Of a stretch of 40,089 bases of DNA, positions 1,676-39,995 are shown piece after piece. The position numbers and the translations under genes are program-made. The notes beneath the pieces were generated by a model, which was not told the DNA's origin, searched no databases, and saw nothing but the letters and a program-made list of their open reading frames with translations. Origin of the DNA: Candidatus Margulisiibacteriota bacterium (GTDB lineage Bacteria > Margulisbacteria > Marinamargulisbacteria > JBHPDY01); NCBI GenBank assembly GCA_042577605.1, contig JBHPDY010000001.1, forward strand, positions 1 through 40,089. The letters run 5' to 3'. The stretch's first letter is position 1, and the number at the start of each line of letters is the position of its first letter.

Positions 1676-1709
1676 TTCTAAATCCTCTTTTCATTTTATC
1701 TGTTTTACA

Positions 1710-1817: not shown

Positions 1818-1829
1818 AACGAGGGTGAG

Positions 1830-2849: not shown

Positions 2850-2858
2850 ATTAATAGT

Positions 2859-3965: not shown

Positions 3966-4190
3966 GTTATTTCCGGGTTAAATATTTGCTAAATCCAACA
4001 CCTGGAATAAATATTTTCCCCACTACTTTGAAAATGCACTGTATGTCATCTATAACCATCAGGGGAGTAAAAGACTTCTGGATCTTACTATTAGGCGAGG
4101 GCATATTATTAGTTTACAGGAAAAATAAAAATATCGAAAAGGTGGTTACAACTAAAAATACCTTAAGTACAACAATATAAAATGATTAGT

Positions 4191-5478: not shown

Positions 5479-6120
5479 TTAGATATCTGAAAAACTTTTT
5501 CTTTCTTCTGTATTTTGCTTAGGTTTTTTTTTGCAGAATGTAATAAAAAACTTAAAAAAGCGATAAAAAAACTTATATTTAACAGGAACAACATTATCGA
5601 TTTTCTCTTTTTTACCTTCCTGTATTATCATAAAAGATTCTTTTACTACCATCCGGATATCAGGCTTAAAAGGATTAGAATCCTGGGGAGAAGATGTAAA
5701 AGTATTCTGATTGGCAGTAATAATAAAACTAATATGACATTTCCTAATCTTGTAAGTCAATTTGATAGTGTTACCTTCTTTGTAATCACTTTTATTCAGA
5801 AAAGGAATAGCTTTTTTAAGCAAGCGTTCCCAGGGTAAAATAGATTTTTTCTGATAGGAGTCCTTTAGTTCTTTATGACCTTTTACACGAAGTTGAAACT
5901 TTTTTTCATTTATTTGAAGATTAACAATTTTTTTAGAACCATAATCAAAATGGTTGCCTAAACTTCTAGATAAGCATTTGGCTATTTGTTCCCAGTCAGC
6001 ATTGTCCAAATCTCCATCAGATTCATCACATTCATAAGATTCATCATATTCATCAGATTCATCAGAAGAAGAGACAGAATAGGAAATATATTGTTCGCAA
6101 GGTATTATTTTTTTGTGCAT
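5479..6120 (-). CDS. Orphan protein, short paralog C of the same family, with an acidic N-terminal tract
   Basis: 213-aa ORF. The N-terminus MHKKIIP matches MxKK[LI][LI]P. It is followed by the acidic tract SSSDESDEYDESYECDESDGD. The block ILPWERLLKK resembles INWERRDLHPALKK in paralog A. The C-terminal tail is VKYKFFYRFFKFFITF. There are only 34 nt to the start of paralog B. Confidence 0.65.
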   Translation of the reverse strand: MHKKIIPCEQYISYSVSSSDESDEYDESYECDESDGDLDNADWEQIAKCLSRSLGNHFDYGSKKIVNLQINEKKFQLRVKGHKELKDSYQKKSILPWERLLKKAIPFLNKSDYKEGNTIKLTYKIRKCHISFIITANQNTFTSSPQDSNPFKPDIRMVVKESFMIIQEGKKEKIDNVVPVKYKFFYRFFKFFITFCKKKPKQNTEERKSFSDI

Positions 6121-10934: not shown

Positions 10935-12236
10935 ATGTTCGTTGCACAATACTATTTTGCAACAGGCTCAGCAAGTATAAAGAAAGGAAATAATTTGAAC
11001 TTAAAACCGATTGATAGTGTTTCACATAGAAAAGTTTCCGGATCTTCTAAAACAGAAGAAAGCCAATCCGTAATTAAAGATGTAAGAGCAGCCACTCCAA
11101 AAGAAAAAATTGAACCAACCCCGCATAAAAAAAAGGCCGACACCATGGCCCAGGCACTAAAGCCTGAGAGCTACAGCCGTCCCATTACCCGAGAAGATAT
11201 TATTAACCTCTTAATAAGCATCAAACAGCAGCCATCTGTAAAGAACCAGTTAATTGCCTCCACATTATTACAGCAGGGCCTAGAAGTTTCAGAGAAGAAT
11301 TTTGCCAAAGTAGCAAGGTTTTCTAATATGGAAAACATTCCTAATATCATTAAATCCATCGTGCTTGCCTTAACAAGGGGCCTGGATTCTTTTAAAAGTG
11401 CGGACATGATCTCAAAATTCTTATTGAATGATACTCAGCTGGCATCCCAACTACAAAAAGCAACAGCAGCGCTAAAGAATTATTCTACGATCTTCCAATT
11501 CAGCAGAGAGCTGTTTAATCCGCAGTTGTTTAACAGTTTTGCAGCAGTGATTTCTGAGATGAACGAAGAACTCCAGAAATGGATGAAGCAAAGCGGCAAA
11601 GACAGTAAAAGCCTGAGGCAATTCATTAGTCTTGATAAAGGAAAGATGGTGAGTAGCCTAAAATCCTTTTACGAGCTATTGGGAGGTATCGGCCAAAAAA
11701 TAGCAGACCCTAATATACAGCAGCAGCCAATTGCCCAGTCTTTGTCAGAACAGATCCAGAACCTTAAAAAAGAAATATTATCCACCATTGAAGCTATTAG
11801 TACCCAGGCAGTATTATCAAAAGATTCTATCCTTCATAATGTAAATAATTACTTTTATTTTCAATTCCCAAATCCTGACGCCCAGCCGCCAGGAGACATA
11901 GATTTATTAATCAAAAAATCTAACGGTAAAAAGGCTGGCGCTATCGATCCTGAGAACACAACTTTAATATTAAGACTGGAAACAACTGATCTTGGGGAGA
12001 TATATACAAAAATCGATGTTAAGCCAAACAAAAAAATATCATTTACTTTTCAGACAGATAGAACAGAAGTAAAGCAGGAGATACTTAGCTCAGCCTCAAA
12101 TCTTAAGGAAACTATGGAAGAAATAGGTTATACTATGGTAGGTTTTCATACAGCGCGGATCAAATTAGATGTGAAAAAAGAGATTTTCCCATCTTTTGAT
12201 CTGGATTCTTTTCCGCGTATTAAAACAGAGGTATAG
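10935..12236 (+). CDS. Flagellar hook-length control protein FliK-like
   Basis: 433-aa ORF. The C-terminal region TLILRLETTDLGEIYTKIDVKPNKKISFTFQTDRTEVKQEILSSASNLKETMEEIGYTMVGF fits the FliK Flg_hook pattern (L.L.P..LG.v.v.i.....i.f......r..L......L...L...G). It is immediately followed by an FlhB-C-terminal-domain gene, which is a recurrent gene pair. The N-terminal start is uncertain. Confidence 0.55.
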   Translation: MFVAQYYFATGSASIKKGNNLNLKPIDSVSHRKVSGSSKTEESQSVIKDVRAATPKEKIEPTPHKKKADTMAQALKPESYSRPITREDIINLLISIKQQPSVKNQLIASTLLQQGLEVSEKNFAKVARFSNMENIPNIIKSIVLALTRGLDSFKSADMISKFLLNDTQLASQLQKATAALKNYSTIFQFSRELFNPQLFNSFAAVISEMNEELQKWMKQSGKDSKSLRQFISLDKGKMVSSLKSFYELLGGIGQKIADPNIQQQPIAQSLSEQIQNLKKEILSTIEAISTQAVLSKDSILHNVNNYFYFQFPNPDAQPPGDIDLLIKKSNGKKAGAIDPENTTLILRLETTDLGEIYTKIDVKPNKKISFTFQTDRTEVKQEILSSASNLKETMEEIGYTMVGFHTARIKLDVKKEIFPSFDLDSFPRIKTEV

Positions 12237-12247
12237 GTAAAATATAA

Positions 12248-12646
12248 ATGGCAAGGCAGAAGTCGAGAGCAAAATCAAAATCAAAAGAACTTTTAAAAAA
12301 ATCAAAAAAGCTTAAAAAACATTTGGATGAACTGGACCTGCCCGAACGGGAAAAGCTAAAAGCGGTAGCTATTAAATACAATGTCAAAAAAGACAAAGCG
12401 CCCAAGATCATAGCCGCAGGAAAAGGCGTTATAGCCGAAAGGATTCTGAAAATCGCAGATGAATTCGACATACCATTTTTCGAAGACCAGGCCTTAACAG
12501 AATTACTCTCTAAAATAGATTTAAACGCCAATGTTCCGGCTGAGCTTTTTACCTTGGTTGCCGAGGTATTAGCTTTTGTCTACCAGCTGGACAAAATGGC
12601 GCAGAAAAGAAAAGAACTCCAGGACAAACGTCGTTCCGATAGATAA
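12248..12646 (+). CDS. FlhB C-terminal-domain-like protein (EscU/YscU/HrcU-family soluble domain, YlqH-like), lacking TM region and NPTH site
   Basis: 132 aa. The segment KAVAIKYNVKKDKAPKIIAAGKGVIAERILKIADEFDIPFFEDQALTELLSKIDLNANVPAELFTLVAEVLAFVYQLDK matches the conserved post-cleavage C-terminal domain of FlhB. The N-terminus is a Lys-rich tail. There is no membrane domain and no NPTH motif. Confidence 0.8.
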   Translation: MARQKSRAKSKSKELLKKSKKLKKHLDELDLPEREKLKAVAIKYNVKKDKAPKIIAAGKGVIAERILKIADEFDIPFFEDQALTELLSKIDLNANVPAELFTLVAEVLAFVYQLDKMAQKRKELQDKRRSDR

Positions 12647-12787: not shown

Positions 12788-12958
12788 ATGACATATGTAA
12801 TTTCTAACGAATGTACCAACTGCGGCGTATGCGATTCAGAGTGCCCCACAGAAGCCATATCAGAAAAAGGCGACAAAAGAGTAATTAATGCAGATTTATG
12901 CACAGACTGCGGTGTTTGTGTGTCTGTATGTCCAGTTGAAGCCATCAGCGAAGGTTAA
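12788..12958 (+). CDS. 2x[4Fe-4S] clostridial-type ferredoxin (56 aa)
   Basis: My own translation is MTYVISNECTNCGVCDSECPTEAISEKGDKRVINADLCTDCGVCVSVCPVEAISEG, which contains two CxxCxxCxxxCP motifs. An AAGGAG site at 12776..12781 lies 6 nt before the ATG. The gene is below the size cut-off of the supplied ORF track, which lists only the antisense shadow 12754..12945. Confidence 0.9.
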   Translation: MTYVISNECTNCGVCDSECPTEAISEKGDKRVINADLCTDCGVCVSVCPVEAISEG

Positions 12959-12987
12959 TATTTTTTATTTTACAGTCAAACAACAAT

Positions 12988-13016
12988 AAATAATCGTGCC
13001 AAAAGCACGATTATTT
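12988..13016 (+). terminator. Rho-independent terminator-like hairpin after the ferredoxin gene
   Basis: AAATAATCGTGC-CAAAA-GCACGATTATTT, with perfect 12-bp arms. It begins 30 nt after the ferredoxin stop, and its 3' arm is T-rich. Confidence 0.6.
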
Positions 13017-13038
13017 ACTTCATATTAAGGATTAATTT

Positions 13039-15456
13039 ATGGAATATAGACCCTTAGAATTTGAAGAAAAATGGCAGCACACCTGGGAAAAGGACAATAT
13101 CTATTCTGCTGACGACACTTCAGTAAAGCCCAAATATTATATGCTGGAAATGTTCCCTTACCCATCAGGAAAATTACATATGGGACATGTCCGGAACTAT
13201 ACAATCGGTGATACATATGCCAGGTATAAACGTATGCAGGGTTTTAATGTGCTGCATCCAATGGGTTATGATTCCTTGGGACTTCCTGCGGAAAACGCAG
13301 CTAAAGATCGGCACATCCACCCCGAAAACTGGACCCTGGCCAGGGTCTCTGAAATGCAGTCCCAACAAAAAAGGCTGGGTTTTAGCTATGATTGGGAGCG
13401 CCAGGTCATTACCAGCCATCCGGATTATTACCATTGGAACCAGTGGCTTTTTATTAAACTCTATAATAAAGGATTAGCCTACAAGAAAAAGGCGCCTGTA
13501 AACTGGTGCGAATCCTGCCAAACAGTTTTAGCCAATGAACAAGTAGAAGATCATCGCTGCTGGCGCTGCAAAAACCTGGTTATACCTAAAGAGCTTAATC
13601 AATGGTTTTTCAAGATCACTGCTTACGCCGAAGAACTTTTAACCGATATTGCTAAATTACAAGGCTGGCCGGAAAAAGTAAAGCTAATGCAAGAGAACTG
13701 GATAGGAAAGTCATATGGTGTAGAAATAGATTTTCCGGTCAATGGTTCTGATGAAACCATAAAAGTATTTACCACCAGGCCGGATACTGTGTTTGGTATT
13801 ACCTATATGGTACTTGCTCCTGAGAACCCGAAAGTAATGGAATGGGTAAAAGGTACGTCCTACGAAAAACCTGTTCTTGAATATCTTAAAAAGGTCCAGC
13901 AGGAAAACAAGATTGAGCGGACAGATGAAACCAAAGAAAAAGACGGCCTTTTTATAGGCCAATACTTTACCAGCCCGTTTACAGGTCAAAAATATCCGGT
14001 TTGGATCTCGGATTATGTGCTTATGGATTACGGCACAGGCGCTGTAATGGCTGTCCCTGCCCATGACCAGAGGGATTTTGAGTTTGCAAAAAAATTCGGC
14101 CTTGAAATTAAAGTGGTTATCCAACCTAAGGACGAAAAATTGACTCCTGAGACAATGCCGGAAGCTTTTGTTGATCCGGGAATAATGGTTGATTCAGGGG
14201 AATTATCCGGGCTGACCAGTCAGGAATTCAAAGAAAAAATAGCAGATTTTATAGAAAAAAAACAAATAGGCAAAAGGACCGTTAACTATAAACTAAGGGA
14301 CTGGCTGCTCTCCAGGCAGCGTTACTGGGGTACTCCTATTCCAATCATTTACTGCCAGGACTGCGGGCCTGTCACAGTGCCGGAAAAAGACCTCCCTGTA
14401 GAACTCCCAAAAAATGTTTCCTTTCGGGTTAATGGCAATCCTTTGGACCACATAGAAGATTTTGTTAATAGCAAATGTCCAAAATGCGCTAAACCTGCCA
14501 AAAGAGAGACAGACACCATGGACACTTTTGTTGATTCATCCTGGTATTTTCTGCGCTACTGCTCTCCCAAAGAAAAGACACAGCCCTTTAAAAAAGAGCT
14601 TATTCAAAAATGGCTTCCTGTAGATCAATATATCGGCGGGGTAGAGCATGCGGTTATGCATTTATTATATGCCAGGTTCTTCATGAAGGCTTTAAGGGAT
14701 TTAGGCTTGTTTGAGATTTCAGAGCCTTTTGACAGGCTTCTTACCCAGGGAATGGTCCTCAAGGACGGGGCCAAAATGTCCAAGTCTCTGGGCAATACTG
14801 TAGATCCCAGCTTAATAATTGATAAATACGGAGCTGATACTGCCAGGCTCTTTATTCTGTTTGGCGCACCTGTCGAGCGGGACCTGGACTGGTCTGATTC
14901 CGGCGCAGAAGGAGCGTTCAGGTTCCTAAAAAGGGTGTACAAATTATGCTTGAACAGCAAGGATTTTCCATTAGCAGAAGATAAACAGAAAGAACTGGAA
15001 AAACAGGTCCATAAATGCATAAAGAGCGTAACCCAGGATTTAGAACGCTTCAGCTTTAATACTGCCATCAGCCGTATTATGGAATTCTTGAATTTTATGT
15101 ACCATCATGGGACTAGTGAAGAAGCTGTTAAGGCACTGGTGCTCTTGCTTTCTCCTTTTGCCCCTTTTATTTCAGAGGAACTCTGGCATGCTCTTAGTAA
15201 CAAAAAGAGCGTCCATTTACAGGAATGGCCGAAATATGACGAGAAACTAGTGATCGATGAACAGATTACGGTGGTTATCCAGATAAACGGAAAAGTAAGG
15301 GATAGGTTAAATGTTGCCAGGGACATTACCCAGGAACAGATAACAGATTTAGCCATGGGACAGGAAAAGATTCAAAAATACTTAACAGATAACCAGATAG
15401 TAAAATCTTTCTATGTTCCCAATAAACTTCTTAGCCTGGTAGTTAAACAGAAATAA
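13039..15456 (+). CDS. leuS: Leucine--tRNA ligase
   Basis: 805 aa. Has the class I HIGH-type motif ([10 protein letters not shown]), the KMSKS motif ([10 protein letters not shown]), the bacterial LeuS N-terminus ([11 protein letters not shown]...[11 protein letters not shown]) and a CP1 editing region. Confidence 0.97.
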
Positions 15457-15462
15457 TAATTT

Positions 15463-16434
15463 ATGTCAGAACAAAAACTAAAAATAAATAAAGCCTGCCC
15501 GAGTTGTGAAACCAATAAAAGTATCCTTATAGAAAAAAACCGCATTTTTTGCAGTAAGCAGGATTGTAATTTTGAAATTGAATATGCATGCCCGTTATGC
15601 GACCAGGAAATGGACATCAATAGTTATCAAGCTGACTGGCAAAATCCATATTTTTTATGTTCTAAATGTAAAAACAAGATCCATTTAACCAAAATAAAAT
15701 ACCTCATAGAAAACCAGCTGGTCGTAGACCAGGGTAAACGTTGTGCATATTGCAATGGCCCGACCATCCACCGCCCTACGGCAAATCTATCTAACCGCTG
15801 CTTTTATTTCCCTCAATGCTCCGGGCAAGCAGACTTGTTTGCAGATAAAAAGGAATCAATAGTTTTTCTTGATTTTGAGACCACGGGCCTGGAAATCGCT
15901 CGTGATTTTATTATTGAGATCGGGGCTATCAAGCTGGACAGTTTAGGATGTGAACATACTTTTCAGACCTTTGTCTCCGGCCCGGAAAAAATTCCCGAAA
16001 ACATAATCCGTTTAACGGGTATTAATCATGAAATGATAAAAAATGCTCCGGGACTGGCTGTAGGTATGGCTGACTTGATTGCTTTTATTGATGACTCCAC
16101 TATCGTAGTCCATAATGCGGAATTTGACCTGTTATGGTTATTAACAGCTGCTATCAGGCATGATATCAAGACTATAAACAATAAAGTGATCTGCACCATC
16201 CAGTGGGCCAAGAAACAAAATGAACCAAGATGCTCTTTAAAAGCCCTGACCAAAAAATACTCCATCCCGCATAATTCCGCTCACCGCGCTTTGGCTGATG
16301 CGGCTGCTACAAAAGAACTTTTTTTCATCTTCGAAAATCTTAAAGCTGCGCCTAAGCCAGTGGATAAGTTGGATAAATATCTATCTCTTTCGCAAAACTT
16401 AGTGAATAAAAACGCCAACTATTTTCAAAAATAA
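15463..16434 (+). CDS. DnaQ/epsilon-like 3'-5' exonuclease fused to an N-terminal multi-zinc-ribbon region
   Basis: The C-terminal half carries Exo I (FLDFETTGL), Exo II (VVHNAEFDLLWL) and Exo III (HRALADAAAT). The N-terminal 130 aa or so carry at least four CxxC pairs (CPSC, CPLC, CSKC, CAYC) plus FPQC. It starts 6 nt after the leuS stop. Confidence 0.8.
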   Translation: MSEQKLKINKACPSCETNKSILIEKNRIFCSKQDCNFEIEYACPLCDQEMDINSYQADWQNPYFLCSKCKNKIHLTKIKYLIENQLVVDQGKRCAYCNGPTIHRPTANLSNRCFYFPQCSGQADLFADKKESIVFLDFETTGLEIARDFIIEIGAIKLDSLGCEHTFQTFVSGPEKIPENIIRLTGINHEMIKNAPGLAVGMADLIAFIDDSTIVVHNAEFDLLWLLTAAIRHDIKTINNKVICTIQWAKKQNEPRCSLKALTKKYSIPHNSAHRALADAAATKELFFIFENLKAAPKPVDKLDKYLSLSQNLVNKNANYFQK

Positions 16435-16461
16435 AGCTTCCTGAGTAGCATAGCTAAAATC

Positions 16462-19153: not shown

Positions 19154-19160
19154 GTTCTTT

Positions 19161-19188
19161 AATCCCTACGGATGTTATCGTAGGGATT
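19161..19188. terminator. Hairpin between convergent genes (bidirectional terminator candidate)
   Basis: AATCCCTACG-GATGTTAT-CGTAGGGATT, with perfect 10-bp arms. It sits in the 43-nt gap between the methyltransferase stop (19153) and the giant-gene stop (19197). Confidence 0.55.
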
Positions 19189-19196
19189 ACAAAGGA

Positions 19197-22100
19197 TTAC
19201 TCCACAAGCAGCTTTTTATCATCAGTATATTTCTTTGCAATTAGTTCAACAAAAGGAGAGTTATCTCTTAGGAAATTTTCACGTGTCTTTTTTGTTTGTG
19301 TTTTTTCCTCAAAAACATCCTCATCCTCTACTAGCACCTTTGTTTTTACTTTTGATTCGGTTTTTGTGCTGTTTAATATTTTGCTTCTCAAAAATCTCCA
19401 AACATACTCCGCAGTATTTTTCACATCGGAAGCTATATTGGCAGCTTTGTCCTTGCAGATCTTATTAATTATTATCATAAGATGCTTGCGATGAGTGTTG
19501 AGTTGCTGTTCAAATTGCCCGCACAAAAATGTGCTTGTCATAACATAGTTACGTAATTTATGGTACTCTGTTATGCGCTCACGAGGATATTTAACCGCTA
19601 GGTTTGAAAATTTTGTGTTGGTATTAGACCTTAAGTTAGCATTATCAGACTTCGCTGTAACATGCTGACAAAAAACATCCCATACTCGGGGATCAAGTTT
19701 TTTAACTAGCTCAAAATAATCTTGTCCAGCCATAGCTTTTAATAATATCTCAAATAAAATGTCACGGTTGTTTTGTATGGCTAACTTGTCTGATTCATTT
19801 GTATTAGGTAAGCCGAAGTCATTCTTTTCAACAAAATTGTGCAGGAATTTCAGCTCGCTTTTATCAGTTGCATCTCCTCCGGTTGCGTTAAAAGCATTTG
19901 ATACCTGTAGCTGAAGGTCTACTTTGTTAAGGCCCTTAATTTTTCCTTTAATTTCAGCAGAGGTTATGGCAGTATAAGCTATTACCATTTTTGGTTGATC
20001 TCCAGACTTCCAGTCTTTTTTATCTTTTTTATTATTGAAGTGTTGCATATATATTGTTAATTGCTTTTGTTGAATAGCCGGATACTTAAATGCAATTTTT
20101 GTAAAAGTAGATGTATTGTCGTCCCTCATGCTGATGGTGGGTTTTGCAGTAGTGATCTTTTCACAGAATTTTGCCCAGCATCCAGGATCTACTAAGGCTA
20201 TTAGCTCAAGGTACTCCAGATAATTTGTGCCAGCCACAGCTTTAAGCAGGATCTTGTATAAAAGATTTTTATTATAAAGTATTTTTTGCTTATGCGTTTC
20301 CTCAACACCGGTTATACCAAAATTAGTACCGTCAAGCTTAAGCCAGTTAAACAAGAATTCAAGCTCATTTTTGTCATCACCATCACCCATAGTAGCAATT
20401 TTATCTGAAACGGATAATTGTTCATCCAACATCCCATGAGTTTTCAGTAAACCTTTAATTGAATTGGGAAGAGCATTATATTTTCCCAACATCTTAGCCT
20501 GGTCCCCGAATTTCCAATCGGATTTTATTCTGCCTTTAACGTTTTTAGTCAGGTAATGCCTAATATAAATTGCCAGGTCCTCAAGATGCTTTGTGGTTGG
20601 GGTAGTAGTATTAAAAAGTCCTAAGACAGCTTGTAGAAACTTCTGGATATTCAGAACAATTGGATCAGAGGCTGGATTTCCGGCAAAAACACCTGGATAA
20701 ATTTCTTTCAAGAAATCAAACAAGCTCTGGTTTAATTGAAACTGGTTTTGAATTTGAACAGGAACAGTAGCCTCAATTTTTGTTTTCAGGGCATTATTAA
20801 ATTTTGTTAGCACAAGATCATGGTTAGTTCGAATATCAACGGAAGTTGCGGAATTAGTATCCGGAATTTTATTTTTTAGTGTTTCTGTCAGAAGGATTGC
20901 TTCCGGATCGAAAGTTAATCCCAGCGTAGCCAGGTTATAGCGTATTGGCATTGGTAAAGAATGCAGAGCGTTTATCTGTTCTACCGTATACTTGTAATCC
21001 TTAATCAAGGTAGTAGCAGTTAAGAATGCAAGCTCACCTTTAAAGAGAGTTGTAAGGTTCTTTAATACATTAAGCGGAGGTAAACTTAATTCCGGTTTTT
21101 TTTCGCGCTTTTCATAATATTCGTAGCTCGAGCTCGTGCCTTTAATCATCTCTAGATAACTCTTCAAATAGTTTTTAAAGGTATCAACTTTGGCATTTTT
21201 CGCAGTAGCATCAATACCAGCGCCAGCAACAGTAGATAATTTCATTACATTAAGTAAGAAATCAAACACTATCTGACTATTATTAAATTGCTGAGTGATC
21301 GTTCTTTCTGCGTTTTTGTGTATTTTATATTCCTGGCTTGTTAGGTTGCTTTTGTTAGAATTAACTGTATTTATCAGTATGACATTCTGTAGAGCATAAA
21401 TCTCATTTGACATTATGCCGATCTCTTTTGGATCAGTAACCGTGGCGGAGACAGTGTTAAAACCTACCTGGGCATCTTGTATTAATTCAGCCGAAGCTAA
21501 TTTCTTTCGTGTTTCTAAAGGTAATGCCATTATTTTCATTTTGGTTATGTCGCCCAGTTCATGAACAGGTTTGTTAAGCGGCGCGCTTCCATCAATGAAT
21601 TGTTTTACAAGATATGTTATGCATTCTGCGTCAGCCTCACTTATCATTAAATCTTTCAAGCTGACAATAAAATCCTTAAATTTTACAAATTTAGTAAAAT
21701 CTGTTGTTGATAAAGTGTCTGTTGATGAATCTGTATACTTTTTTAACGCATCAAAATATGGCACACAGATCTGTTCCAGACGATTACGTTTGACCAATTT
21801 CTCCTCATTTATAAATAATTTAAGAATAGGCATCATATGAAAGACTACCCTTTGTTCCCTTTGGTGTCTTTTTATATCTGAATCGAAAATGCCAGATTTG
21901 GATTTAATGCTTTTTTGGTTTAGCTCCATTACCTTATTGGCCAAGTTAATAATAGAGGAAGGGATTCTTTCGGAACCCGGATCAGTGAACAGAACCGCCA
22001 TCTTTGCACGCTGGTCACCCATTACTGTTGTATTAGGGTGTAGTTTAAATTTGACATTTAAAAGATTGTGCTTGTGCAGTAGAATTCTAAGTGGAAGCGG

Positions 22101-25100
22101 AAGTTTATAAACCTTTCTATTTACATTATTTGAGGACGGATTTATTTCATATTCTTTTATGAATTTTACCATGTTTGATATGTCGGAGGAACTCATGTTT
22201 TCCGGAAGGTCAGGAAATCCGGTCTGAGAAAGTAGATTTGCTTTTCTTTTCTGAATTTCTAGCAAACAGTCTTTAATCATATTGTTAAATGTGGTTTTAT
22301 CTCCACCATCAATACTGTTATCAGCAAAAGTAAATTCACCAAGCCCCAGCTTTTTAAGCAGAACTCTTAATGCCTTGATAATATGTGTATTGTCACCTGC
22401 GATTCCCCCTGTGGCAAACACTGCTGCCCTAGCGTCATCCAGGAGTTTTTGCAGCCCAAGAATTTCTAGGAACCCAGTTTTGAATAAGGTATTTATACTT
22501 AAAATGCGCTTGATTTTATCTTCACATAAAGCTAGTCTTTTCTCAAATTTGCCCTTATCTCCAGTTGTGATAGTATTATGATCACCAATATCCAGGTCTG
22601 GTATGCCTAATGCTTTACTTAAGGCCTTCAGATTCTTGATAATATCAGCATTGTCACCAGCTGTACCGGTAGTAACAAAGTCATGACCTTTACATGATTG
22701 CAACCAAGAACCGTCATAGATTGTAAGGATTTTAGCCCGGCAGGCATAAATGATCTTATTGAAATTAGCTAGAGAGGCATCATTATCGTCTAAAATGGAA
22801 ACATCTATTACCAATTTGACTCCTAATACTTTTAGCTTGGCTATCACATTAGTGTTATTAGTCCCGGTTGTAGTATCAAATTTGCAATGCTCCCATTCTT
22901 CAAGATTGAATAAATCTTTATTAATTTCATAGGAAGTCTTTAAAGAAGGATCTTTAATTACCAGGGACTTAAAATCACTCCAATATCTAAAATTTAATTT
23001 CCTGTTATCAACACCAGTTTCGGTTGGATTTTTAAGTGAATTTTTTCTCATAAAAGTTAATATGGTTCTTCTGGCCCAAGGATCTAGTTTACTAAACTCA
23101 TTAGGTTCATAAGCTAAGGCATGCACGAATTCAGGCATGCCTATGTAGCCAGCAATCCCCTCCGGAGATAAAAACTTTTTCTGTAATTCGGGAGGAAGTT
23201 GACTAAAATCATCCACGACGGACTTAGTCAATGATTCAATGTTAAAAATAAAGGACGCTTTATCATCTAAGTTTTTCTTTTTTTCATACAGCTTACTTAA
23301 GCTCCTCAAAAAATTAAAGAAAATCACTATTTTATCTTCATTGCCTTTGTTATTTTCGATAAATTCATCAACAAGGGTTTTGAGGTGATTCCCCAATATT
23401 TTAAGTGTGCTCTCATTGAATGTGTCTGGTGTGTTAAAGACTACGTCGTCAAAACGGCCATAACTAATGGTATAAGTCTTTTTTTCTCCTACTTCACTTG
23501 CATATGTCCCCTGTATTTTAAATTTACTAACAAAAGTTTGAAGTTTGGTACCGTTCGCATTCCCTCCGAGTTGTGCTTTGGCATCTACTAAAGTCATATC
23601 CAAGCCAGGAGATTCTTTGGCATAAGTATTTACAACTATGTTGGTGTTGGTTAGGAGTTTAATTATTTCTGAGCGAAAATTGTGGCCGGATGGATCATTT
23701 TCTTCTTTATAAAGAACTTCGCTTAATTTTATTTGTGTTTCAAATATGTTAATTATGCCTGTAAATCTATTTTTTAGTTCAGTTAATTTTAGACTGCGAG
23801 TGTTAAAGCCACCAGCAGTAGTTTTGTTGACATCTCCTATTAACACCTCTAACTGCTTTAACAATGATTTTACGTATTCAAGTTGTTTATTTGCTTGGGT
23901 TATCTTGAATTCACTATATATATTTCTAGATTTAAAAGCGGAGCTGTACATGTTTTTTGTCTTGTTCATTTCTAGGAGCAGGATCAATTCAAAGGCATAT
24001 AGCTGTATTTTTGTTACATTGGCAACACCAATGACATTGTGAGTCTTTCTTTCTCCTGTGTCTGTTTTTGAGCGGATTACTTCTAGAATATCTTTTCGCT
24101 TGGTTTTATTTTCTTTGAGATATTCTGCAAGCATAGATTTGAATATAGGGGAACTCAAAAAACCAGGTGGCAAAGTTCCCGGATTTTTATAATAGTATAC
24201 ATCCAAGAACTTTGTTACTAAGTTTTTCATGCTCTGAATAACGCCAGCATTGATTATCTTTGTAGGCAATACAATTAAGTACATCTCAATAACTTGAAGC
24301 ATTTTATTGCATTTATCCGGCGAGAGTTTATCATTTGCAACATTTCCGCTAGTTGGTATGGCATCCCTGAATTTATTTGAAAATAGGACTGTTAGTCTTG
24401 CCAGGATTTTAACGCTAATTTTATTGGCGTTTGCATATAGCTTGCCTAAATTAGGATAATCTACTCCGGTTACAGCTTTATAATGTAATTTAAAATCTTG
24501 ATATTCGCGATATAGTTTGATTAATTTTTTTAGTGATGGAAGATCAGTTATATGTTTGTCTTCTATTGTTTCAGGTATGCCTTTTGATAATTCTCTGGTC
24601 AGTTTTTCTTTTCTTTTGCTTACTTCATTGAGCATTTTATTATAGGTGCGGGCATATTCTTGGAATATCTTAAAAGCCTCGTAGAGTTTAATATGAGGGA
24701 ACAGTTTTTCCTTTGGCTCTACAGGTCGTTTAAGGATAAAGAGCTCTGGTTTTATTAGTTGGTTATCTGTCAGGACAGAGGCTAAGGTTGCAGTGGTTCC
24801 ACCAGATATGTCTTCGAGCTTAATTTTGTTTGCATCTAGTATTCCTGGATTTCCATTTAATAATATGATCAGTTCACTGATCTTTTTCAAGGCATTCCTG
24901 AAATCGATAGATTGGTGTTTTTTATCATCATATTTAATACCGGATGTTTCTATTTTAGCTTTAGCATCTGTTAGAATAACGCCTTGTGATTTAATACCGC
25001 TCTTTTCCAACTTATCATCCTGGTAGAATTCTTTGGAATACAAATTGATTTTCTTCATTGTGTTGTCTAATTCTTTCTCTAAAACAGTCCAAGCCTTCTT

Positions 25101-28100
25101 ATTTGTATCAATATTGATATATTTCTTTAAAACCATTAATTTTGCATAGAGGCGAACCATTTTGCTGATTTTCTTGGCAGAGGTGTCATCTGAGACAAGA
25201 ATTTTATTAACATTTTCGGCTTTTAAAGTGTTTGTTTGTGTTACTAGATAATGCTGCTGGACAAGTTTAAGCGCATCAAGGTTCTTGCCCTTAATCTGAT
25301 CTTCCGGGCCTAAAGTCGCATTTAGCTTGGACACAGTGAGAATTAATTTATTAAGCTCTTCGAAATTTGTTTCGAAATTACCTGAATACAAGGCATAGTT
25401 GCCTAAATTAGCGTGTATGAGCGGTAAATTCTGTCCATCATATTTAGAATGAACAGTATTGATATTTGATTTAGCAATTCCCGTTTGACGCCCCATAGCT
25501 TTTCCGATCTCTTTTAATGCCTTTCTCAAAGCTTCAAACGCTGCTTTTAGTTTTAATTCAGTTTCTTTGTGTCGGATATTCTGGAGCTCGACTAGTTTAA
25601 GAAATTTATTCCCCTCTTGGATCTTTTTTTTAAAACCCTCCAGATCATTAATATTATTAGTTAATCCCAATGTATCACTGACGGATGTCATCCCTGTTGC
25701 TTTGGATGAAAATAATAGAAAGCTACTTTTACATTCGTCTAATTTAGTATTTAATGATTCTTTTGAGTTTTTAAGATATACATCAGATTTGTATATTGCT
25801 GAAAAAGCAGTTTGAAATACGCTGAAATCTCTTTCCGTGCTTGTGAATTCAGTATGAAAACCGGTTACTAAAGTATGGAGTTCTTCCATTTTCTTAACTA
25901 TCTGGAGGTTCTGATTAACCATCTTGTTATGCTTTATACTTACATCCATGATGGAAGAATGATCTTTTTTCATCTCATTTAGCATCTCAAATTCGGCTTT
26001 CAATATATCACACGCGTAGCGAAGCATATCTAACTGTACAATAACAGGAATAGAAGGATTCCTTTTAGCCAAGCCTTGTTTCTTTAGCGCTTCAATCTTG
26101 TTATCTATATTATATTGAGCATTATAAAAATCATCATCATCCTTAGGCATGAAACCCAGTTCCCTCAAAAGAATAATAACATTTTGGCGGAAGATAAGCT
26201 TGTGATTTGCTCCTGAAAACTTAAACTTAAGCCTATTAAATACCAGGTTCGAATCTTTTGAAAGCCTATACATTGTTGGGTCCCAAATAAGTAAGTATTG
26301 TTGTTTCATTGGAGTATTGATATTGTTCTTCAAATGCTCATTGAAAGAAAAATCAGATAATATAGATTTCATCAACGGCCCTAAAAGAAGATTGTAAGCA
26401 AGTGTTGCCTTTTCCTCTTCATCAGATAGACCTAATTTTATCTTAAGCCCCTTAATACAATCTTCAAATCTTTGGTTAAAATTCGATTTAATAGAATCTG
26501 AATCAAGCATAAGAGGTGGATGCGATATAAATTTGTTCGCAAGCATATTAATATCAGTCACTAACCTGAGTAGTTCTTTTTCATCGGAAGGTAATTTTCC
26601 GGATTTATAAATATCATGACAGGATCGAAAACGGTACATTGTCCTGCAAAAGTTTAAAACATCTTCTTCTTTATTAAGATCAGCAATAAGGCCCCTTTTA
26701 GCAAGATGATCGATCAGCATGACGGATCTTTTTGTGCCTAGTGTTGATCTTGTGACTTTTGGGTTTTTTGCAATCCTAAGTTTAAAAAATTTAGCAATTA
26801 CGCGCTTCTGGCCAGTGTTTATTTTTTTAGTTACTTTTTTTGTCATTCGTTCTATGGACGTTTTCCTAAGGGATTTTCCAGTGTTGAAAAACTTTTTCCA
26901 CACTAGTAGATTTTTTACTAATCCTTTAAATTTATCCTTATTAGTAAGCAACGACTCGAACTTTATACGATATTTAATTTGAAGTTTTTCTTTGCAGCTT
27001 TTGATCGCCGCAAGAAAGACTGGTTTATCAGTGGACTCGTTAGTCATAGAAAATGCCACACGCAATTTCTTGCAAACATATCTAAGCTCTTTAATTGACG
27101 CTGTATTATTTTTTCCTTCAGAATCATCAAATACATGTTTAATAGCAATGTCTAGAGCATCTAATTCTTTTCCCAGCTCAGGATCATCAAATAGATCAAA
27201 TAAGTCTCCGGGTGTTTGGACGTTTTTAACACTTGTTTTATCATTGATTATTTTTTGTATTTCTTCACGGCACTCCTCAATCCTTATCCTAAGTTCAACA
27301 AGTGTACAATTATTTACCAGTTCCGTTTTATTTCCGGAAAACAACAAATTACTTAGCTGATTAATAGAACGGACATCTGTTGTTGAATCTAATTCAAATA
27401 AAGCCTTGAGTTGAGTTAAATAACCGCGCAATTTATCATGAGACCTATCAGAGAAAGATAAAATGAAATCATCAATATTTTCATTTGTTAAAACGCGGGC
27501 TCTTATTTGGATTATCCCGCCTAGTTTATTCTGACATTTTCTTCTTCTTTCTCTAATTTCGCTAGAAGTAGAAATTTCTGTTAACTTTAAGGTTATTGTA
27601 TCTTCAGGAAATAGTATCATGTGCATAGAATTTACAAGCCCTATAGTCTGGACCTTGTTTTTATTTAATGCCTCAGAAGAAAAAGATAATTTCAGATGGC
27701 TTAATAGCGCTACTATAAATTTATCCTCAGCAAAGATATCTTTAAAGTAACTGGCATACAAGGGTTTGAAATCGTCAAGAGCATGAAAATGCGCAAAGAG
27801 CGTACCCTTAGCCACAACCTTTATCTTTTCCAGGATGTCTATGACGGCTGCTCTAGATTCATAAAAACTATTAGGCACCAACGTCTCTAGCTTTGAATCA
27901 ATTTTAAGGGGATGCTTCGGTGCGCATGACATAGGATTGACAAAGGATTTTAAAACTCGTTCAGACTGTAAATGATCATTTTCAAAAACATTCTGATCAC
28001 CAAGCATAAGGCCGCTGCCCCTGAGCGTCTTGTTTGTAAGTGATGTTGCAAAGACCTTATTACTGCTTTTTTGCAGTTTTAATAGCGCTTCAAAATTTAT

Positions 28101-31100
28101 TTCATTACCCCATAGTTTAAAGTCCCTTTTATTATGCTTCAGTATTGTTTTTAAAAAACTGGGAGCCTCACGTTTATGATCAATATGAATAGAATAAGGC
28201 AGATCTGACTTAATCGGCCTTATAATAACAGCGCCTGGATTTGCCATTAATTTATTACGAAAAGCCTCGAATTTTGATAGGTTCCCATTTAAATAATCAG
28301 GAACCTTGCTTTCCCGATTCCGGAACTGACCTGCCTCTAGGATGCTCTGTATTTTAGGTTTAATAGTGGTAATATTAGAAGTGAGCTGTCCTGAAATTGT
28401 AGTAAGATAGTTTGTGTCTGAAGTATTTGTAGATAAATCAGTAATAACAATCTTTTCGCCTGTTACTAATTCATATTGTTCAGCAAAGTCTTTTAAAAAA
28501 TCATTAATAGCTGTGATGAATATTGGTTTATTGGTATCATTCAGTGTTATTAGATAGTCAGAAACCTTTCCTAAAAACTTTAAAATTCCTTCAGGGGTGT
28601 AATAGGAGCTTTCCGGATAATTTTTGTAGTGAGTAGTGAAAACAGCTTTAATATGATTGTTCTTTTTTATATTTTGTCCAATACCTTGTAAAGAATTGCA
28701 GAAAGACTCTACAAGAAAGGTTATTTGATATATAAAATACTCGTTTTTTTGGAGGTCTGTCTTTGCCGTGTCTTTAAACTTTTGCGACAGATCTAAAAAT
28801 AGTTTTGAAGTATTGTTTATATATTTTTTCGTTTTTGCGTAACTTGATTCTGTATCCTCATTTGGGAATCGAAACTTAGTTGTTGCCAATAATACAAAGG
28901 CATCTCGAAGATGAGTAATAGCAGCATGGATATAAGCTATTTTTCTTTCTCTAAGATTTGGCCATTGATAACCGCCTTCTTTTTTAATGAACTTTACACG
29001 ATGAAGCTCTTTTCTTAGCTCAAGGAAGAATCGCCCGATTCTTTCATTAATTTCTTTGAAAGCATTTACAGCAATATTAGTGCCGCCTGATTTATGTCTA
29101 GAAATAAAAGCTTTGATATCAAGATCAATCTTACTCATTCTCTCGTTAACACTTTTAGCTCTTACAGCCAGTTCAGTGAAATCTAGCTTCAGATCAAGAG
29201 GTTTTGTAATAACAGAAGGGACATATGTCTCTAGATTTGATGTGAGATTGGAATAATCATTGAAAAACTTAAGGGATTTTTCAAAAATCTCATTAGAACG
29301 ATAACGTATTTTTTTTAATGATTTTGGTGACAGGCCTTTGACAGATTGCGAGTCAAGGTACCTTTTGCACAGCATAATATAGTGAGGCTGGATTTCATTT
29401 AATTTTATAATTATTGTTTTGATCCGGGCCCGTAGCTCTCTTTTCTCCGGAGAAAGCCCAATTAAAATGGCGAGCTTTATTTTTTTTGTGTTCCATTCAT
29501 TTAATAGTAGGTTCATTTCCTCTAATTTTTGCCTTACTACTTTTTCCATTGATTTCAAATAAGTTGAAATCTTTTTTTCTATTTTAATGCTGCAATACGA
29601 GTTATAATCAGATGAATGGACTTTCCCTTTTACCGTATTAAAATCAAGCTTGATCTTCAGTGCCTTTTTTAATCTTACAGAATTAAATTGATTCGGAAGA
29701 TGAAGAGTTATCATATTAAATAATTTAGTAATCATGTCATTCCACTTATCTTCTTTTTCTATAAGCGAAAAACGTTCGCATAGTGGTATTATCCATTTTG
29801 TAATCTGTTCAACAGATTCCATTTCCCTCATAGTGGTACCTTCGTTAAAACGCACACAATGATCCTTGATGATATTTAAAACTGTTAACACAACATAAGG
29901 GAACCGTTTTTCTTTAGTAGTCGTGCCCCAAGTCTTACTATATGTAGACACCTCGTCGGATGATGGCCTAATCGCATCGTCATAAAGTGCCCCTATGTCA
30001 GTAGGGAAAGTAAGGTTATTGATTTTATCTCCATAGTTCCCAGGAGGCTTTGTTACTACATTGTTATAGTAGGAGCTTAGGATTTCAACGTTTTTTTTAT
30101 GCTGCTCTGGATCTTTCTTTTTTAATAAGGAAACTTTTGGAGGTTTAACAAGCTCAGTTTGGCCTTTGGAAAGGAAATCCAATTGGTTGCAGAGATCAGT
30201 AAATAATATTAAGGATTTGCTAAGCGGTTCAATCTGTTTTAGCGCTGTATTTTCGATATTCTGCAGTTTGCTTGTTAACTCTCGGCCAGGAACCTTAATT
30301 TTAGCGGATATTGTATCTAAAGCAAGAATAGTGGTTTTTATGTTTTTAGGGCTGCAAGGATCATCAGGAATCTCATAATAGCCACCATAATTCTTTAATA
30401 TAAAACAAAATCTTTTAATTTCTTCTTTATCCTTTGCCGAAGCAGTGCTTTTGTCCTCAAGTAACTTTACCCTGGTAATAATGGGGCCTAGGGTATCAGT
30501 GCATAGCTTCTTAATATTAGAGAGCATTCTGGAATCATGTAGGCGCTTTTCTGTTAATGCTTTGCAATTTATCATTAAAGAATGAATTTTCTTAGTAAGA
30601 TCAGAATCCTTTATTTTTCCGGACATCAGGGCTTTTACAAGCGCAGTTAATAAAAAATTAACTTCAAGGCCATGTAATCCTTTTTCTTTTCCTAATTCTA
30701 TAAAACCAATGTTATTCGTGAAATCTAGTGTTTTTTCTATTAATAAAGCTTCATTAAATAATAACTCTTCAAGATATTTAATAATAGTTGAAAGTGTATT
30801 CTTTGAGCTTGGATCTGGCTCCCGATTCTTGATATCCGGGATGAATTTCTTATTTCCAAAAACCTTTGAAACATCACTGTCCAATCCGGTTTCATATTTA
30901 TCAACTCTAAATACCCTTCTTAACTGCTTTTGAGATACTTTACCGGAAACATCAAAAAAATCATTAATGTTAGGGATAATATTCCCAATTAGAAGATCGA
31001 TTTCTTCTTGTGTGAATTTCAGGACTATGTCTGTCCCGATAATACTTACTTCATCATCATTTTTATTGTACCTGACCCCATCTATTGTGAAGAACGGATT

Positions 31101-37900: not shown

Positions 37901-39995
37901 TAAGAACACTTTAATATTAGGATTAACAAACAAAATACAAATAACAACTATTTTTAGCGGAATTGATCAAACTTCAAAAATAGCGAAAAACTATCTTGCA
38001 GAAGCAGAAAGGGTAAGAAAACTGATCTTAGAAAAAGTAATAAAACTAAATTCAAGCAAAGAAGATAAACAAAAGGCCATGAAAAAGTTTATTAAAACTA
38101 TTATAACCCGGTATGGTAAAGATAAAATATTAAAACCAATTACAAGTACTTCACTAGGTGAAGATTATAAAAACTATAAATACGATTTCATAAAGGGTTG
38201 TGGAAAAGCTTTGTTCAAGGCTAATCCTACTAATACAGGAGTAGAGCTTAATGGAATAGATATAGTTCTAGCAAAGAGTTTAATTGATAAGGTAGCCACG
38301 AATTATACAAACTATAATAAGCTAATGAAAATACTTGGCAGAATTAAATTCCAGCCTCTTGAAAAGAACTGTGAAAAGAATTGCCAGCACAAGCATCCGG
38401 ATTGGTATTATGCCTGGATATTCAAGCTAGACTATACAAATGGTATCTATACTCTATCCAGAGAGGAAAAGATTTCTATTATTAAGGGATTAAATAATGA
38501 ACTGGAAAAACTACGAAAACAAATCCAAATCCAGCTAATCCAAAGAAAAATAATCAAAAGAATCCAAAATATTGAGTTCCAAATTAATGATTCACCTATA
38601 ACAAAAGTAAAACCTTTTCAGACTTGGGATGGGACCACGAAATTTACGGGGTTTATTAAAACCATGCCTCACAAAGGCGATCTAGCCATGGCAGGTTTCA
38701 AGGACGCTAAACTTATTCTTAGAATAAAAGGCACTATTGATAACGCAAATAAGGGAACAATCATTAAAAACAATGACTTGAAAAACTATGAATTCCGCAC
38801 AGAATTTCCAGCAAGGTTTGATGAAGCAAAAACAGCCTTGGGATTAGTAAATTTAGATAGCTTAAAATTTGGATTAGATAGTGAAGAAATGATTATCAAC
38901 GCAATGCTGGGAAAAGCTCCTTTTACCTTGAACGGTAAACCGATTTTTGAAATAACCGGAAATGATATTAAGTACAAGAAACTTGAAAAAGGAGTAATAG
39001 ATCCACTAGATCCCACAAAAGAAAAAACCAAAGTATATTATCCCTATCATGTGCCCATATCCGAGATTAAAAAAATGAAAAAGGCATTCAAGAAGGACAG
39101 TGGTTTATTTGGAAAACTCAAAGTAGTAATTGATAAATTGGGTGACAATATAGTTGAAGGAAGGAAAAAAGCGCTTGGTAAACCTTATAAAGATTTTTTT
39201 GAGCTTCCAGAAGATCAGCCGCTAACGAAGGTAACTCTTAAAAATAAATATCAAAACGCCAGTAAAATTGTAACACATTTGGGACAAGCTCATCAGCCGT
39301 GTTTTGTGGCCAATAAATTTGGTACAGTTAATAATATGGGTTTCATAAGAAAAAAAGTGCATCTAGTAATGAGAATGAAATACCAAGAAGCGCAGAAAAC
39401 TGTAGCAAAGCAGGAACTAGAAAAGCAAAAAGGGGAACTCTTAGGAGGCGGGATGCACCAACTATTTACAGTTGACACGAAGACTTTACAAGTAAAGCTA
39501 ACTACTTCTATTAAAAAGAAATTGAAAAGATTATCTTTAGAGAAAGTAAATGAAAATCTTATTGAATTTATCGATAACAAATCCACCGGAGAATATGATA
39601 CATACTTATATCTTCAAGCCTATTTTCTTATTAATAATAATCAAAATGAAAATTTTAAAAGTGGTTTGAAAACATCACATAAACCAGATATCCTATATGA
39701 AAAAATCAAAATATTTAATTCTAAAACAGTTAAAAAAAATATGCTATTGAAACCAAGCGTTAAAACGCAAATAGATAATTTTGATATGGTAAAACCTAGT
39801 GTGATTTATGGTCTTGAGAGTAATATGGAATCAAAATTTCTGCAGGTTGAAACTGGGATCGCATGGGATCCAGAAAAATATAATGGTCTACCAAATGATA
39901 AAGCAAGAATAATTAATTATTATAAAATTAAGACATTGATAGAACTACAGAAATTCGGAAAAGCGTATTATACATATCATTTAACTAAAATCTAA
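34905..39995 (+). CDS. Large orphan protein, 1,696 aa, with a 256-aa tandem module
   Basis: An uninterrupted 5,091-nt frame. AAGGAG lies 6 nt upstream of the ATG. I saw no signal peptide and no recognisable catalytic motif. An internal duplication is anchored on YLGKIN (36981 and 37749). Confidence 0.9.
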   Translation: MNKDPSGLGVSGFGSSSLQNRYRQIIKTGKKNITDKQLDDLYGQNLKYIKQDPAILLVLLPNLVKLLCRISATDTGKQFIVPDIGNKIKLDLTGLKDFVLNIINDNNNKNKSLPKIKEHLLKVMKLKEFYFEEDRKEKLLVELGSHQALIKKKEVSNLFACCEEFKEELYAEVEMIFNDFVKSHNQLKDNFLARFANFCDTGFQPFQWKPETRDMKFTEPNNTPTALETAKKIVLEANTKKKDISDWPTKLQDIKFSDINTSVIADDIGAFNTIFVNEVNKLLKAIRVELTKLTQAESDKWLEIIKKIVKKDEYKIPPTTGAPIFKIKDKAIIFTGEDVSQLDPAKVVVNRFLLPGRTNKLADFKGEYKELKGADIGGDDPKILGVTIPKNDAVGTDKKIREFVLKSLDTFNKNKLGEICKQVDALQAYITLVFNKIKAVGTTNDGTERYIFERDDSNDKLKHVTIQNVLSWLNKKHNNKSSEVIKELNTMKTNLVKLKTDAQLIDAKYKEFQKVGTKLIDDAIQFIEVEVLGSDANKNRINLKKELRTKIIDSFDSSKNVDQIVNPKPGGGTAVQVDAQGSVFKPDNAKKMELGLLDDVKTKFIQYFCNQNGLYPYGPKFTNKEAVLKVFTNIKDDHAWSVNLINEPYSNIPEDQRKSDIKEVNTEANTVLTALKGNVNTELNNIGTKANIYLGKINTKFKTFITGGISFNPLALDGSYELISGKTDMKTLAWELLKVAGGNEVKELELLNNLNTGLTIDIFDELTRSHPLTKIYLDKANKIRIKLHKEIDNIIKLKKATRKKIITAYSSGSELTKYKYYSNLWVEDFKITGHSTIDLFKLLSSSVKKLTLFGPDLINYAKALCENNKAYPGHKDYLQNRETLLKMFTIGDTERDWLIAKLKATNPDCLNIKETVAQIIAEAELELAKVRAAMISEIQTNGLGKTDQYLGKINEHFKKYPDTNLTYNPFKLDNNKQLIPNTGKSLDEIAKDMFNNSTNKNTLILGLTNKIQITTIFSGIDQTSKIAKNYLAEAERVRKLILEKVIKLNSSKEDKQKAMKKFIKTIITRYGKDKILKPITSTSLGEDYKNYKYDFIKGCGKALFKANPTNTGVELNGIDIVLAKSLIDKVATNYTNYNKLMKILGRIKFQPLEKNCEKNCQHKHPDWYYAWIFKLDYTNGIYTLSREEKISIIKGLNNELEKLRKQIQIQLIQRKIIKRIQNIEFQINDSPITKVKPFQTWDGTTKFTGFIKTMPHKGDLAMAGFKDAKLILRIKGTIDNANKGTIIKNNDLKNYEFRTEFPARFDEAKTALGLVNLDSLKFGLDSEEMIINAMLGKAPFTLNGKPIFEITGNDIKYKKLEKGVIDPLDPTKEKTKVYYPYHVPISEIKKMKKAFKKDSGLFGKLKVVIDKLGDNIVEGRKKALGKPYKDFFELPEDQPLTKVTLKNKYQNASKIVTHLGQAHQPCFVANKFGTVNNMGFIRKKVHLVMRMKYQEAQKTVAKQELEKQKGELLGGGMHQLFTVDTKTLQVKLTTSIKKKLKRLSLEKVNENLIEFIDNKSTGEYDTYLYLQAYFLINNNQNENFKSGLKTSHKPDILYEKIKIFNSKTVKKNMLLKPSVKTQIDNFDMVKPSVIYGLESNMESKFLQVETGIAWDPEKYNGLPNDKARIINYYKIKTLIELQKFGKAYYTYHLTKI

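Follow-up and report, generated by a model that had tools for sequence, protein, structure and literature searches.

The window analyzed here, one entire NCBI contig of 40,089 bp (JBHPDY010000001.1) from a metagenome-assembled genome (MAG) of an uncultivated bacterium, carries on its minus strand a single coding sequence (CDS) of 15,207 nt (19197..34403; 5,068 codons, ATG start, TAA stop; MFC1770261.1, locus tag ACFLZV_00090) whose NCBI title is 'hypothetical protein ACFLZV_00090 [Candidatus Margulisiibacteriota bacterium]'. We found this giant to be a genuine, native-looking and translatable gene for which the databases searched hold no homolog outside a lineage that has been sequenced a single time. 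It would be native to the chromosome and maintained by selection in a deep-branching Margulisiibacteriota lineage that has been sampled once, and its product may be a soluble, basic protein of ~575 kDa, nearly all alpha-helical and of high-complexity, mostly unique sequence, with two small duplicated helical modules toward the C-terminus. For its role we tentatively favor that of a non-enzymatic helical interaction scaffold, probably cytoplasmic and possibly acting with a divergently oriented neighbor of 1,696 aa, a proposal that we regard as possible and hold with less than even confidence.

The open frame itself is far beyond chance. At the local composition the probability of a stop is 0.077 per codon, i.e., about one stop expected per 13 codons, which puts the chance of 5,068 stop-free codons at ~1e-176; each of the five alternative frames across the same span contains 147-626 stops, and the competing open reading frames (ORFs) within it reach just 110, 122, and 127 aa. 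A first-pass annotation of the window, which gave no strand, had called the frame non-random, set 127 codons as the limit of any other ORF in the span, noted an AAGGAG Shine-Dalgarno site, and credited the gene with 38 percent of the window. All of this was borne out: the gene takes up 15,207/40,089 bases (37.9%), and AAGGAG lies at 34409..34414 (minus strand), separated by a 5-nt spacer from the ATG at 34403..34401, where it is among the two best Shine-Dalgarno sites of the contig. The N-terminus is bounded by a TAA in the same frame, which precedes the ATG by 7 codons (34422..34424, minus strand). GC content at the three codon positions (GC1/GC2/GC3: 0.41/0.30/0.31) follows the coding-type pattern GC1 > GC3 > GC2, and codon usage in 500-codon chunks of the giant is correlated with that of the housekeeping genes of the contig (r = 0.52-0.77), compared with a leave-one-out range of 0.40-0.74 among the housekeeping genes themselves and 0.27 for a frame-shifted control. 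Since codon usage falls in the housekeeping range, we rejected a recent horizontal transfer. TAA, TAG, and TGA each terminate genes of the contig; the standard genetic code is therefore in use and a recoded one was likewise rejected.

These data bear directly on whether the ORF could be an artefact or a dying gene, whether through chimeric assembly, through fusion of several genes into one run-on frame, or as a pseudogene still free of interruptions. The gene is seen on one MAG contig with no second observation, and giants that lack both Pfam domains and homologs have been flagged as possible prediction artefacts (PMC11573180). Against this, a frame kept open over 15.2 kb with so small a chance probability needs selection against stops, its start is bounded and preceded by a strong Shine-Dalgarno site, and NCBI annotation treats it as one CDS. 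GC level is even along the ORF, codon usage is homogeneous, and neither DNA repeats longer than ~25 nt nor tandem arrays were detected inside it, which makes a misassembly driven by repeats unlikely. Nothing observed hints at a misassembly, and we consider an artefact or a decaying gene very improbable.

The encoded protein (~575 kDa) has an isoelectric point (pI) of 9.4 and a net charge of +193, and is rich in Lys, Leu, Ile, Asn, Thr, Ser, and Glu (12.4, 11.6, 8.2, 7.1, 6.9, 6.5, and 6.1%, respectively), in agreement with the Lys/Asn/Ile/Leu/Glu richness reported earlier. The basic charge was dropped as a clue to nucleic-acid binding because a pI above 9 is common among the proteins of this contig. 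Sequence entropy is uniformly high (3.8-4.1 bits per 200-aa window). Scanning the protein for Walker A, HExxH, GGxGxD (RTX), GxSxG, GxGxxG, Fic, PLD, HNH, GGDEF, and LPXTG motifs returned none, and no signal-peptide-like segment was seen at the N-terminus. The top-scoring hydrophobic 19-mer has a Kyte-Doolittle (KD) value of 1.85, yet includes Lys and Asp, so that there is no credible transmembrane (TM) helix. The first-pass annotation, made by eye, had seen no Sec signal peptide, TM segment, RTX, Ig/cadherin-like repeat, nonribosomal peptide synthetase/polyketide synthase (NRPS/PKS) motif, Walker A, or HExxH, and the motif scans, the KD scan, and the empty Pfam and NCBIfam tiles described below uphold it on each.

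Its description of the protein as predominantly helical also stands, weakly. A single-sequence AlphaFold2 (AF2) model of aa 3869-5068 (pLDDT 36.5) is ~61% helix by DSSP, with 53 mostly short helices and virtually no strand; in this low-confidence model the helices span roughly 8-25 residues and are joined by loops. Along the giant, hydrophobicity recurs with a period of 3.4-3.9 residues, and in 10/10 segments of 500 aa the alpha-type hydrophobic moment lies above that of shuffled sequence. A crude scan for heptads and coiled coils was set aside because it did not pass its positive control. Together, the model and the periodicity weakly suggest an essentially all-alpha protein.

Such a protein would sit poorly with a role as surface adhesin or S-layer-like envelope protein, the form that bacterial giants typically take. 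Surface attachment is the second-largest class of bacterial proteins >5,000 aa (PMC11573180), and a split HldE-like gene pair on the contig, described below, indicates an envelope bearing lipopolysaccharide (LPS). The giant nevertheless lacks a signal peptide, TM anchor, LPXTG, and RTX; Ig, cadherin, hemagglutinin, and beta-helix domains were not detected; beta strand is essentially nil in the models; and there are no short-period tandem repeats and no type I secretion genes nearby. An adhesin is thus largely refuted, and we would give it very little probability.

Short-period repeats are absent, as the first-pass annotation had stated; it missed two diverged internal duplications, RepB (~75 aa, four copies) and RepA (~175 aa, two copies). 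RepB copy 1 (aa 2426-2501; 26901..27128, minus strand) is isolated and was detected at E = 1.4e-5 before joining the model, and copies 2-4 (aa 3843-3913, 3911-3988, and 3998-4078; 22170..22877, minus strand) are in tandem, with N8, I12, L15, L22, F43, and C50 invariant. The two RepA copies (aa 4600-4780, 20064..20606, and aa 4772-4945, 19569..20090, both minus strand) are 38% identical and match each other with E = 1e-23 to 1e-30. Both copies keep two Trp, one Cys, an Asp-Pro pair, and a Lys-Tyr-Pro triplet unchanged, and the conservation of Trp, Cys, Pro, Gly, and hydrophobic (core-type) positions indicates a maintained fold. An AF2 model of RepA from the two-row alignment is a compact bundle of ~10 helices (pLDDT 60, pTM 0.52), for which Foldseek returned no match (best E = 3.1 in PDB and 1.5 among the viral folds of BFVD; query-normalized TM-scores <=0.31). 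RepA is unrelated to RepB: a putative shared 'GDN-helix' motif was rejected because a model built on RepB hits RepA no better than a shuffle does (hhalign 0.2%). Additional RepA copies, proposed from 'LPLPxR' recurrences at aa ~4100-4500, were unsupported by an iterative hidden Markov model (HMM).

We searched for relatives of the giant with several kinds of query and database. Residues 1-4998 against 5.8 billion clusters (word-indexed, then HMMER) recovered the self-match alone, and residues 801-2000 against 1.84 billion representatives (exhaustive HMMER) recovered nothing beyond self. Pfam and NCBIfam gave no significant match on six tiles of 1,000 aa, and a finer Pfam tiling (33 tiles, 300 aa each) yielded just chance-level echoes of helical families. 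These sub-threshold echoes (ING, HEAT_DAAF5, GAT, NleF, and dynein coiled coil) are no more than chance would produce with so many tiles and mirror helical composition only. PADLOC returned at best short, chance-level stretches (Csm2, E = 0.0048; Cas2, E = 0.023) and PHROGs nothing significant; PDB sequences matched neither the full-length giant nor either repeat profile. Nucleotide-level searches were equally empty, with no match by tblastn among 72,556 plasmids and 50,697 phage records, none in viral contigs (pattern-plus-tblastn scan), none in Joint Genome Institute (JGI) metagenomes (pattern-plus-tblastn with the N- and C-terminal 1,200 aa), and no homolog by tblastn in 80 loci anchored on Asd. 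When the 5.8-billion-cluster database was queried with a profile of both RepA copies, no hit at E <= 10 came back; because the parent protein itself was missed, that negative is unreliable and was not counted. The case illustrates that a word prefilter can miss true positives for short profile queries.

The first-pass annotation had called the protein an orphan of entirely open function and had proposed profile searches along with a homolog search of metagenome-assembled genomes. The profile searches found no described family, the homolog search found nothing besides the giant itself, and neither homolog, domain, nor motif offered a lead on function. Its orphan status is retained with a qualification that comes from the sampling of the organism. 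LeuRS, LepA, Asd, the methyltransferase, and the other contig proteins checked are each the sole member of their 90%-identity cluster among ~15 billion sequences, which shows that the organism has been sampled once, and identity to the nearest relatives is 69% for Asd, 57-60% for DapB, and 37-40% for the methyltransferase. Since housekeeping proteins are singletons too and the nearest relatives are distant, the orphan status partly reflects sparse sampling, and 'no homolog' means none outside a lineage sequenced a single time. It is still notable, because a query of 5,068 aa has very high detection power and the proteomes of the relatives are in the databases.

Synteny as a route to a homolog was followed and rejected: the DapB-Asd-methyltransferase block is kept in relatives, and a homolog of the giant was found in 0/80 loci. 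The best species-representative genomes anchored on Asd are a Marinamargulisbacteria MAG and 'UBP8_UBA817' (each at 69% identity), and the three genes keep their order in both, as they do in a MAG of Saganbacteria; this confirms that the phylum is Margulisiibacteriota. Ordinary-sized genes occupy the syntenic position in two Marinamargulisbacteria genomes. In UBP8_UBA817 (locus L002, CAMDGG010000014.1), a Pfam-less ORF of >1,214 aa (12812-16455, plus strand) begins ~1.3 kb downstream of the block and runs off the contig; it lies on the opposite relative strand and has no significant or collinear similarity to the giant (best E = 0.64). The same locus encodes a Glu/Gln-rich protein of 1,241 aa (350-4072, plus strand) built from tandem repeats of ~36 aa. 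Large ORFs that resist annotation may recur in the DapB-Asd-methyltransferase neighborhood or in the phylum.

The giant could be one very fast-evolving member of a large helical family spread across the Margulisbacteria, with relatives beyond sequence detection or missing from fragmentary MAGs. An organism sampled once, with housekeeping proteins that are 90% singletons and a methyltransferase at 38-40% in its nearest relatives, would allow this, as would the Pfam-less ORF placed directly after the conserved block in UBP8_UBA817 and the reported enrichment of Margulisbacteria in proteins >5,000 aa without clusters of orthologous groups (COGs). Weighing on the other side are the power of so long a query, which found nothing in 5.8 billion clusters or by exhaustive HMMER of aa 801-2000, the strand and poor E value of the UBP8_UBA817 ORF, and the ordinary genes at that position in the two Marinamargulisbacteria loci. 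We regard a hidden family as a real if doubtful possibility; whether the gene belongs to a family or is specific to its lineage is a question orthogonal to that of function.

With regard to function, we infer a scaffold from what the protein lacks (catalytic, NTP-binding, membrane, export, adhesin-repeat, and toxin/immunity features) and from the housekeeping context of the gene. The protein would consist of irregularly arrayed helical bundles or resemble an alpha-solenoid, in either form offering a large binding surface, and its site of action would probably be intracellular. Several points count against this proposal. Nothing found speaks positively for any one function. The all-alpha structure is read from low-confidence models (pLDDT 36.5 for the tile, 60 for the repeat unit), and the tile covers 1,200/5,068 residues at a confidence that makes it unusable for fold search; a strongly diverged catalytic domain could hide within the unfolded 3,868 residues. 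No solenoid periodicity of 34-47 residues was found in the giant. Exhaustive profile coverage comprises aa 801-2000, with aa 1-800 and 2001-5068 searched through the word index. Lastly, a protein without a signal could still leave the cell, whether through the flagellar apparatus or through a secretion system of type I, III, IV, or VI, and only this contig is in view.

The putative partner of the scaffold is the divergent gene at 34905..39995 (plus strand; MFC1770262.1), preceded by a TAAGGAG Shine-Dalgarno site and encoding 1,696 aa; the contig ends 94 nt past its stop. It too is an orphan, with no match in Pfam or NCBIfam and the self-match alone among 5.8 billion clusters, and it has its own internal duplication of ~255 aa (aa 539-820 and 793-1093). 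Composition and codon usage are like those of the giant. The shared codon usage (r = 0.77) and the strong Shine-Dalgarno sites on both genes make it possible that the neighbor is the giant's functional partner, and the two may work together. They are not related in sequence, and a reading as paralogs was rejected: borderline BLAST and HMM scores (E = 0.2) were overturned by an hhalign probability of 0.1%. The 501-bp, AT-rich intergenic region between them (34404..34904) contains no Rfam family (riboswitch or other RNA), and promoter-like hexamers are not more frequent in it than expected by chance. A sequence resembling a sigma-28 flagellar promoter, GAAA-N15-ACCGATAT (34668..34694, plus strand), lies upstream of the neighbor; there are 84 matches at 3 mismatches compared with 63 +/- 8 in shuffles, and we gave it no weight. 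More speculatively, and in our judgment quite unlikely, the two orphans would be founders of an unseen two-component system, either a cytoskeleton-like or organelle-scale scaffold or a contact apparatus, with helical folds that have no PDB counterpart.

The main functional rival of the scaffold is a non-classically exported effector or cell-contact factor, which would be secreted into a host, prey, or partner by a system encoded elsewhere, with the neighbor as co-effector or translocator. Large, fast-evolving proteins that are restricted to a lineage and lack domains are typical of effectors. Host association is known in the group, in that Ca. Ruthmannia eludens (Margulisbacteria) is an intracellular symbiont of Trichoplax and Ca. 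Termititenax (Margulisbacteria) is associated in the literature with the term 'ectosymbiont', and huge proteins have been tied to host association in bacteria (PMC11573180). Both orphan genes are AT-richer than the housekeeping genes, and genes related to flagellar export (FliK-like and FlhB-C-like) are present on the contig. The remaining evidence points the other way: no secretion-system, chaperone, or immunity gene is adjacent, the protein has no recognizable secretion signal or eukaryote-like domain, codon usage looks native and not island-like, and the contig retains biosynthetic genes (DapB, Asd, and the ADP-heptose-type pair), unlike the profile of a reduced symbiont. An effector or contact factor is therefore unlikely, though far from negligible.

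The genomic setting of the giant is made of ordinary chromosomal genes. The flanking genes encode LepA, LeuRS, a metallophosphatase, a split HldE-like pair, a class IV aminotransferase, a DnaQ-like exonuclease, a TPR/methyltransferase protein, DapB, Asd, and an S-adenosylmethionine methyltransferase, in addition to the FliK-like and FlhB-C-like proteins. Across the 40 kb no secretion-system, mobile-element, chaperone, or immunity genes were found. Downstream of the giant, just 43 nt (19154..19196) separate its stop from the convergent methyltransferase gene, which leaves no room for an immunity-type ORF; no intrinsic terminator was detected in this spacer.

Other features of the contig were recorded in passing. 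A PfkB-family kinase and a cytidylyltransferase-like protein (208-1675, minus strand), whose genes overlap by 17 nt, resemble a split HldE (ADP-heptose synthesis) and imply an LPS-type outer membrane. Three more Pfam-less hypothetical proteins, all on the minus strand (2859-3965, 368 aa; 4191-5444, 417 aa; 5479-6120, 213 aa), have a GC of 0.29-0.34 and a pI above 9, and their codon usage is correlated more strongly with that of the giant (r = 0.66-0.83) than with that of the housekeeping genes (r = 0.57-0.59); lineage-specific genes of the contig are systematically AT-richer than conserved ones. The class IV aminotransferase ORF, as mechanically called, overlaps the LepA 3' end by 136 nt (7910-8045), so that its real start is probably at a later codon. 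Behind the gene of a FliK-like hook-length-control protein (10935-12236, plus strand) comes that of a 132-aa protein limited to the FlhB/YscU C-terminal domain (12248-12646, plus strand); the pair is isolated amid housekeeping genes, and other flagellar genes were not found on the contig. A palindrome with a perfect 13-bp stem, TAAATAATCGTGC-CAAAA-GCACGATTATTTA, lies upstream of LeuRS at 12987-13017, with 22 nt between its end and the start codon; it has no Rfam match and could be the terminator of the upstream gene or a regulatory hairpin.

We compared the giant with the described classes of large bacterial proteins. It lacks the marks of RTX adhesins and toxins (0 matches to GGxGxD, no Pfam hit, and in the 40-kb contig none of the type I secretion genes for an ABC transporter, membrane fusion protein, or TolC) and of Ig-like, cadherin, or hemagglutinin adhesins (no Pfam domain, tandem period, signal peptide, or LPXTG, and ~0% strand in the models). 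No Pfam or NCBIfam tile contains an NRPS/PKS domain (condensation, adenylation, ketosynthase, acyltransferase, or carrier). Of the features of polymorphic toxins (Rhs/CDI/MafB-type) we found neither Rhs/YD nor hemagglutinin repeats, no toxin domain, and no downstream immunity gene, and Pfam matched no Tc toxin domain (TcA/VRP1; SpvB/Rhs) in the giant or in its 1,696-aa neighbor. A phage tape-measure or virion protein finds no support in PHROG, phage, or viral matches, and the neighboring genes are housekeeping genes; nor did the giant match any PADLOC model of anti-phage defence above chance.

Likeness to the HEAT/ARM/TPR alpha-solenoids is one of class resemblance and not of membership. The giant resembles them in being apparently all-alpha, with many short looped helices in low-confidence models, and large, soluble, and free of catalytic motifs; its sub-threshold Pfam echoes likewise fall on helical families. 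It differs in that the best profile, HEAT_DAAF5, scores 15.9 bits (E = 0.005-0.011) where the cutoff is 31.9, in having no period of 34-47 residues, and in the lack of a Foldseek match for the RepA model. With the large orphan effectors of host-associated bacteria it shares restriction to a lineage, freedom from known domains, AT-richness relative to core genes, and the lack of a classical signal peptide; it departs from them in that the contig shows neither an island signature nor a secretion system, chaperone, or eukaryote-like domain.

The first-pass annotation had also raised a possible link to Omnitrophota, which does not hold, the lineage being Candidatus Margulisiibacteriota and the TM regions and SecA-DEAD domains being absent. 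The Omnitrophota giants (Archaeovorin and Dockerin types) reach 85,804 aa, all full-length ones have numerous TM regions, and most have SecA-DEAD domains as well, along with beta-helices and attachment or carbohydrate-active domains, with type II secretion genes close by (bioRxiv 10.1101/2023.11.21.568195). Our protein is like them a very large single ORF of an uncultivated bacterium, largely invisible to HMM annotation; unlike them it is smaller and has no TM segment and no SecA-DEAD/preprotein-binding, beta-helix, or carbohydrate-active domain. Its architecture, apparently helical and free of TM segments and domains, differs from that of the described giants, whether beta-rich adhesins, megasynthases, or the TM/SecA giants of Omnitrophota. 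If the protein is as it appears, it would amount to ~575 kDa of ordered, maintained sequence on which neither sequence methods nor the structural comparisons run gave a lead. With a single observation and no relatives its practical value is limited for now, and we regard it as a genuine curiosity and not demonstrably a new kind of machine.

The class to which the giant belongs is already known, because the enrichment in Margulisbacteria and the minority of huge proteins without Pfam domains or homologs have both been surveyed. Of ~41,000 proteins >5,000 aa, ~3,500 have no Pfam domain and ~3,200 have neither a homolog in the dataset nor a COG, and Cand. Margulisbacteria is among the phyla enriched in such lengths, its proteins lacking COG assignment (PMC11573180); the Margulisbacteria have also been named for a high incidence of very large genes (bioRxiv 10.1101/2023.11.21.568195). 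Like the UniProtKB 'huge proteins' of the former survey, the giant exceeds 5,000 aa, lacks both a Pfam domain and a COG, is a singleton, and comes from an enriched phylum. Unlike that catalogue, which is statistical and gives no architecture, our analysis covers the gene model, codon usage, helicity, duplications, and context of one protein and argues against an artefact, and so provides a vetted, concrete example of the poorly characterized giants flagged in Margulisbacteria, the sister lineage of Cyanobacteria.

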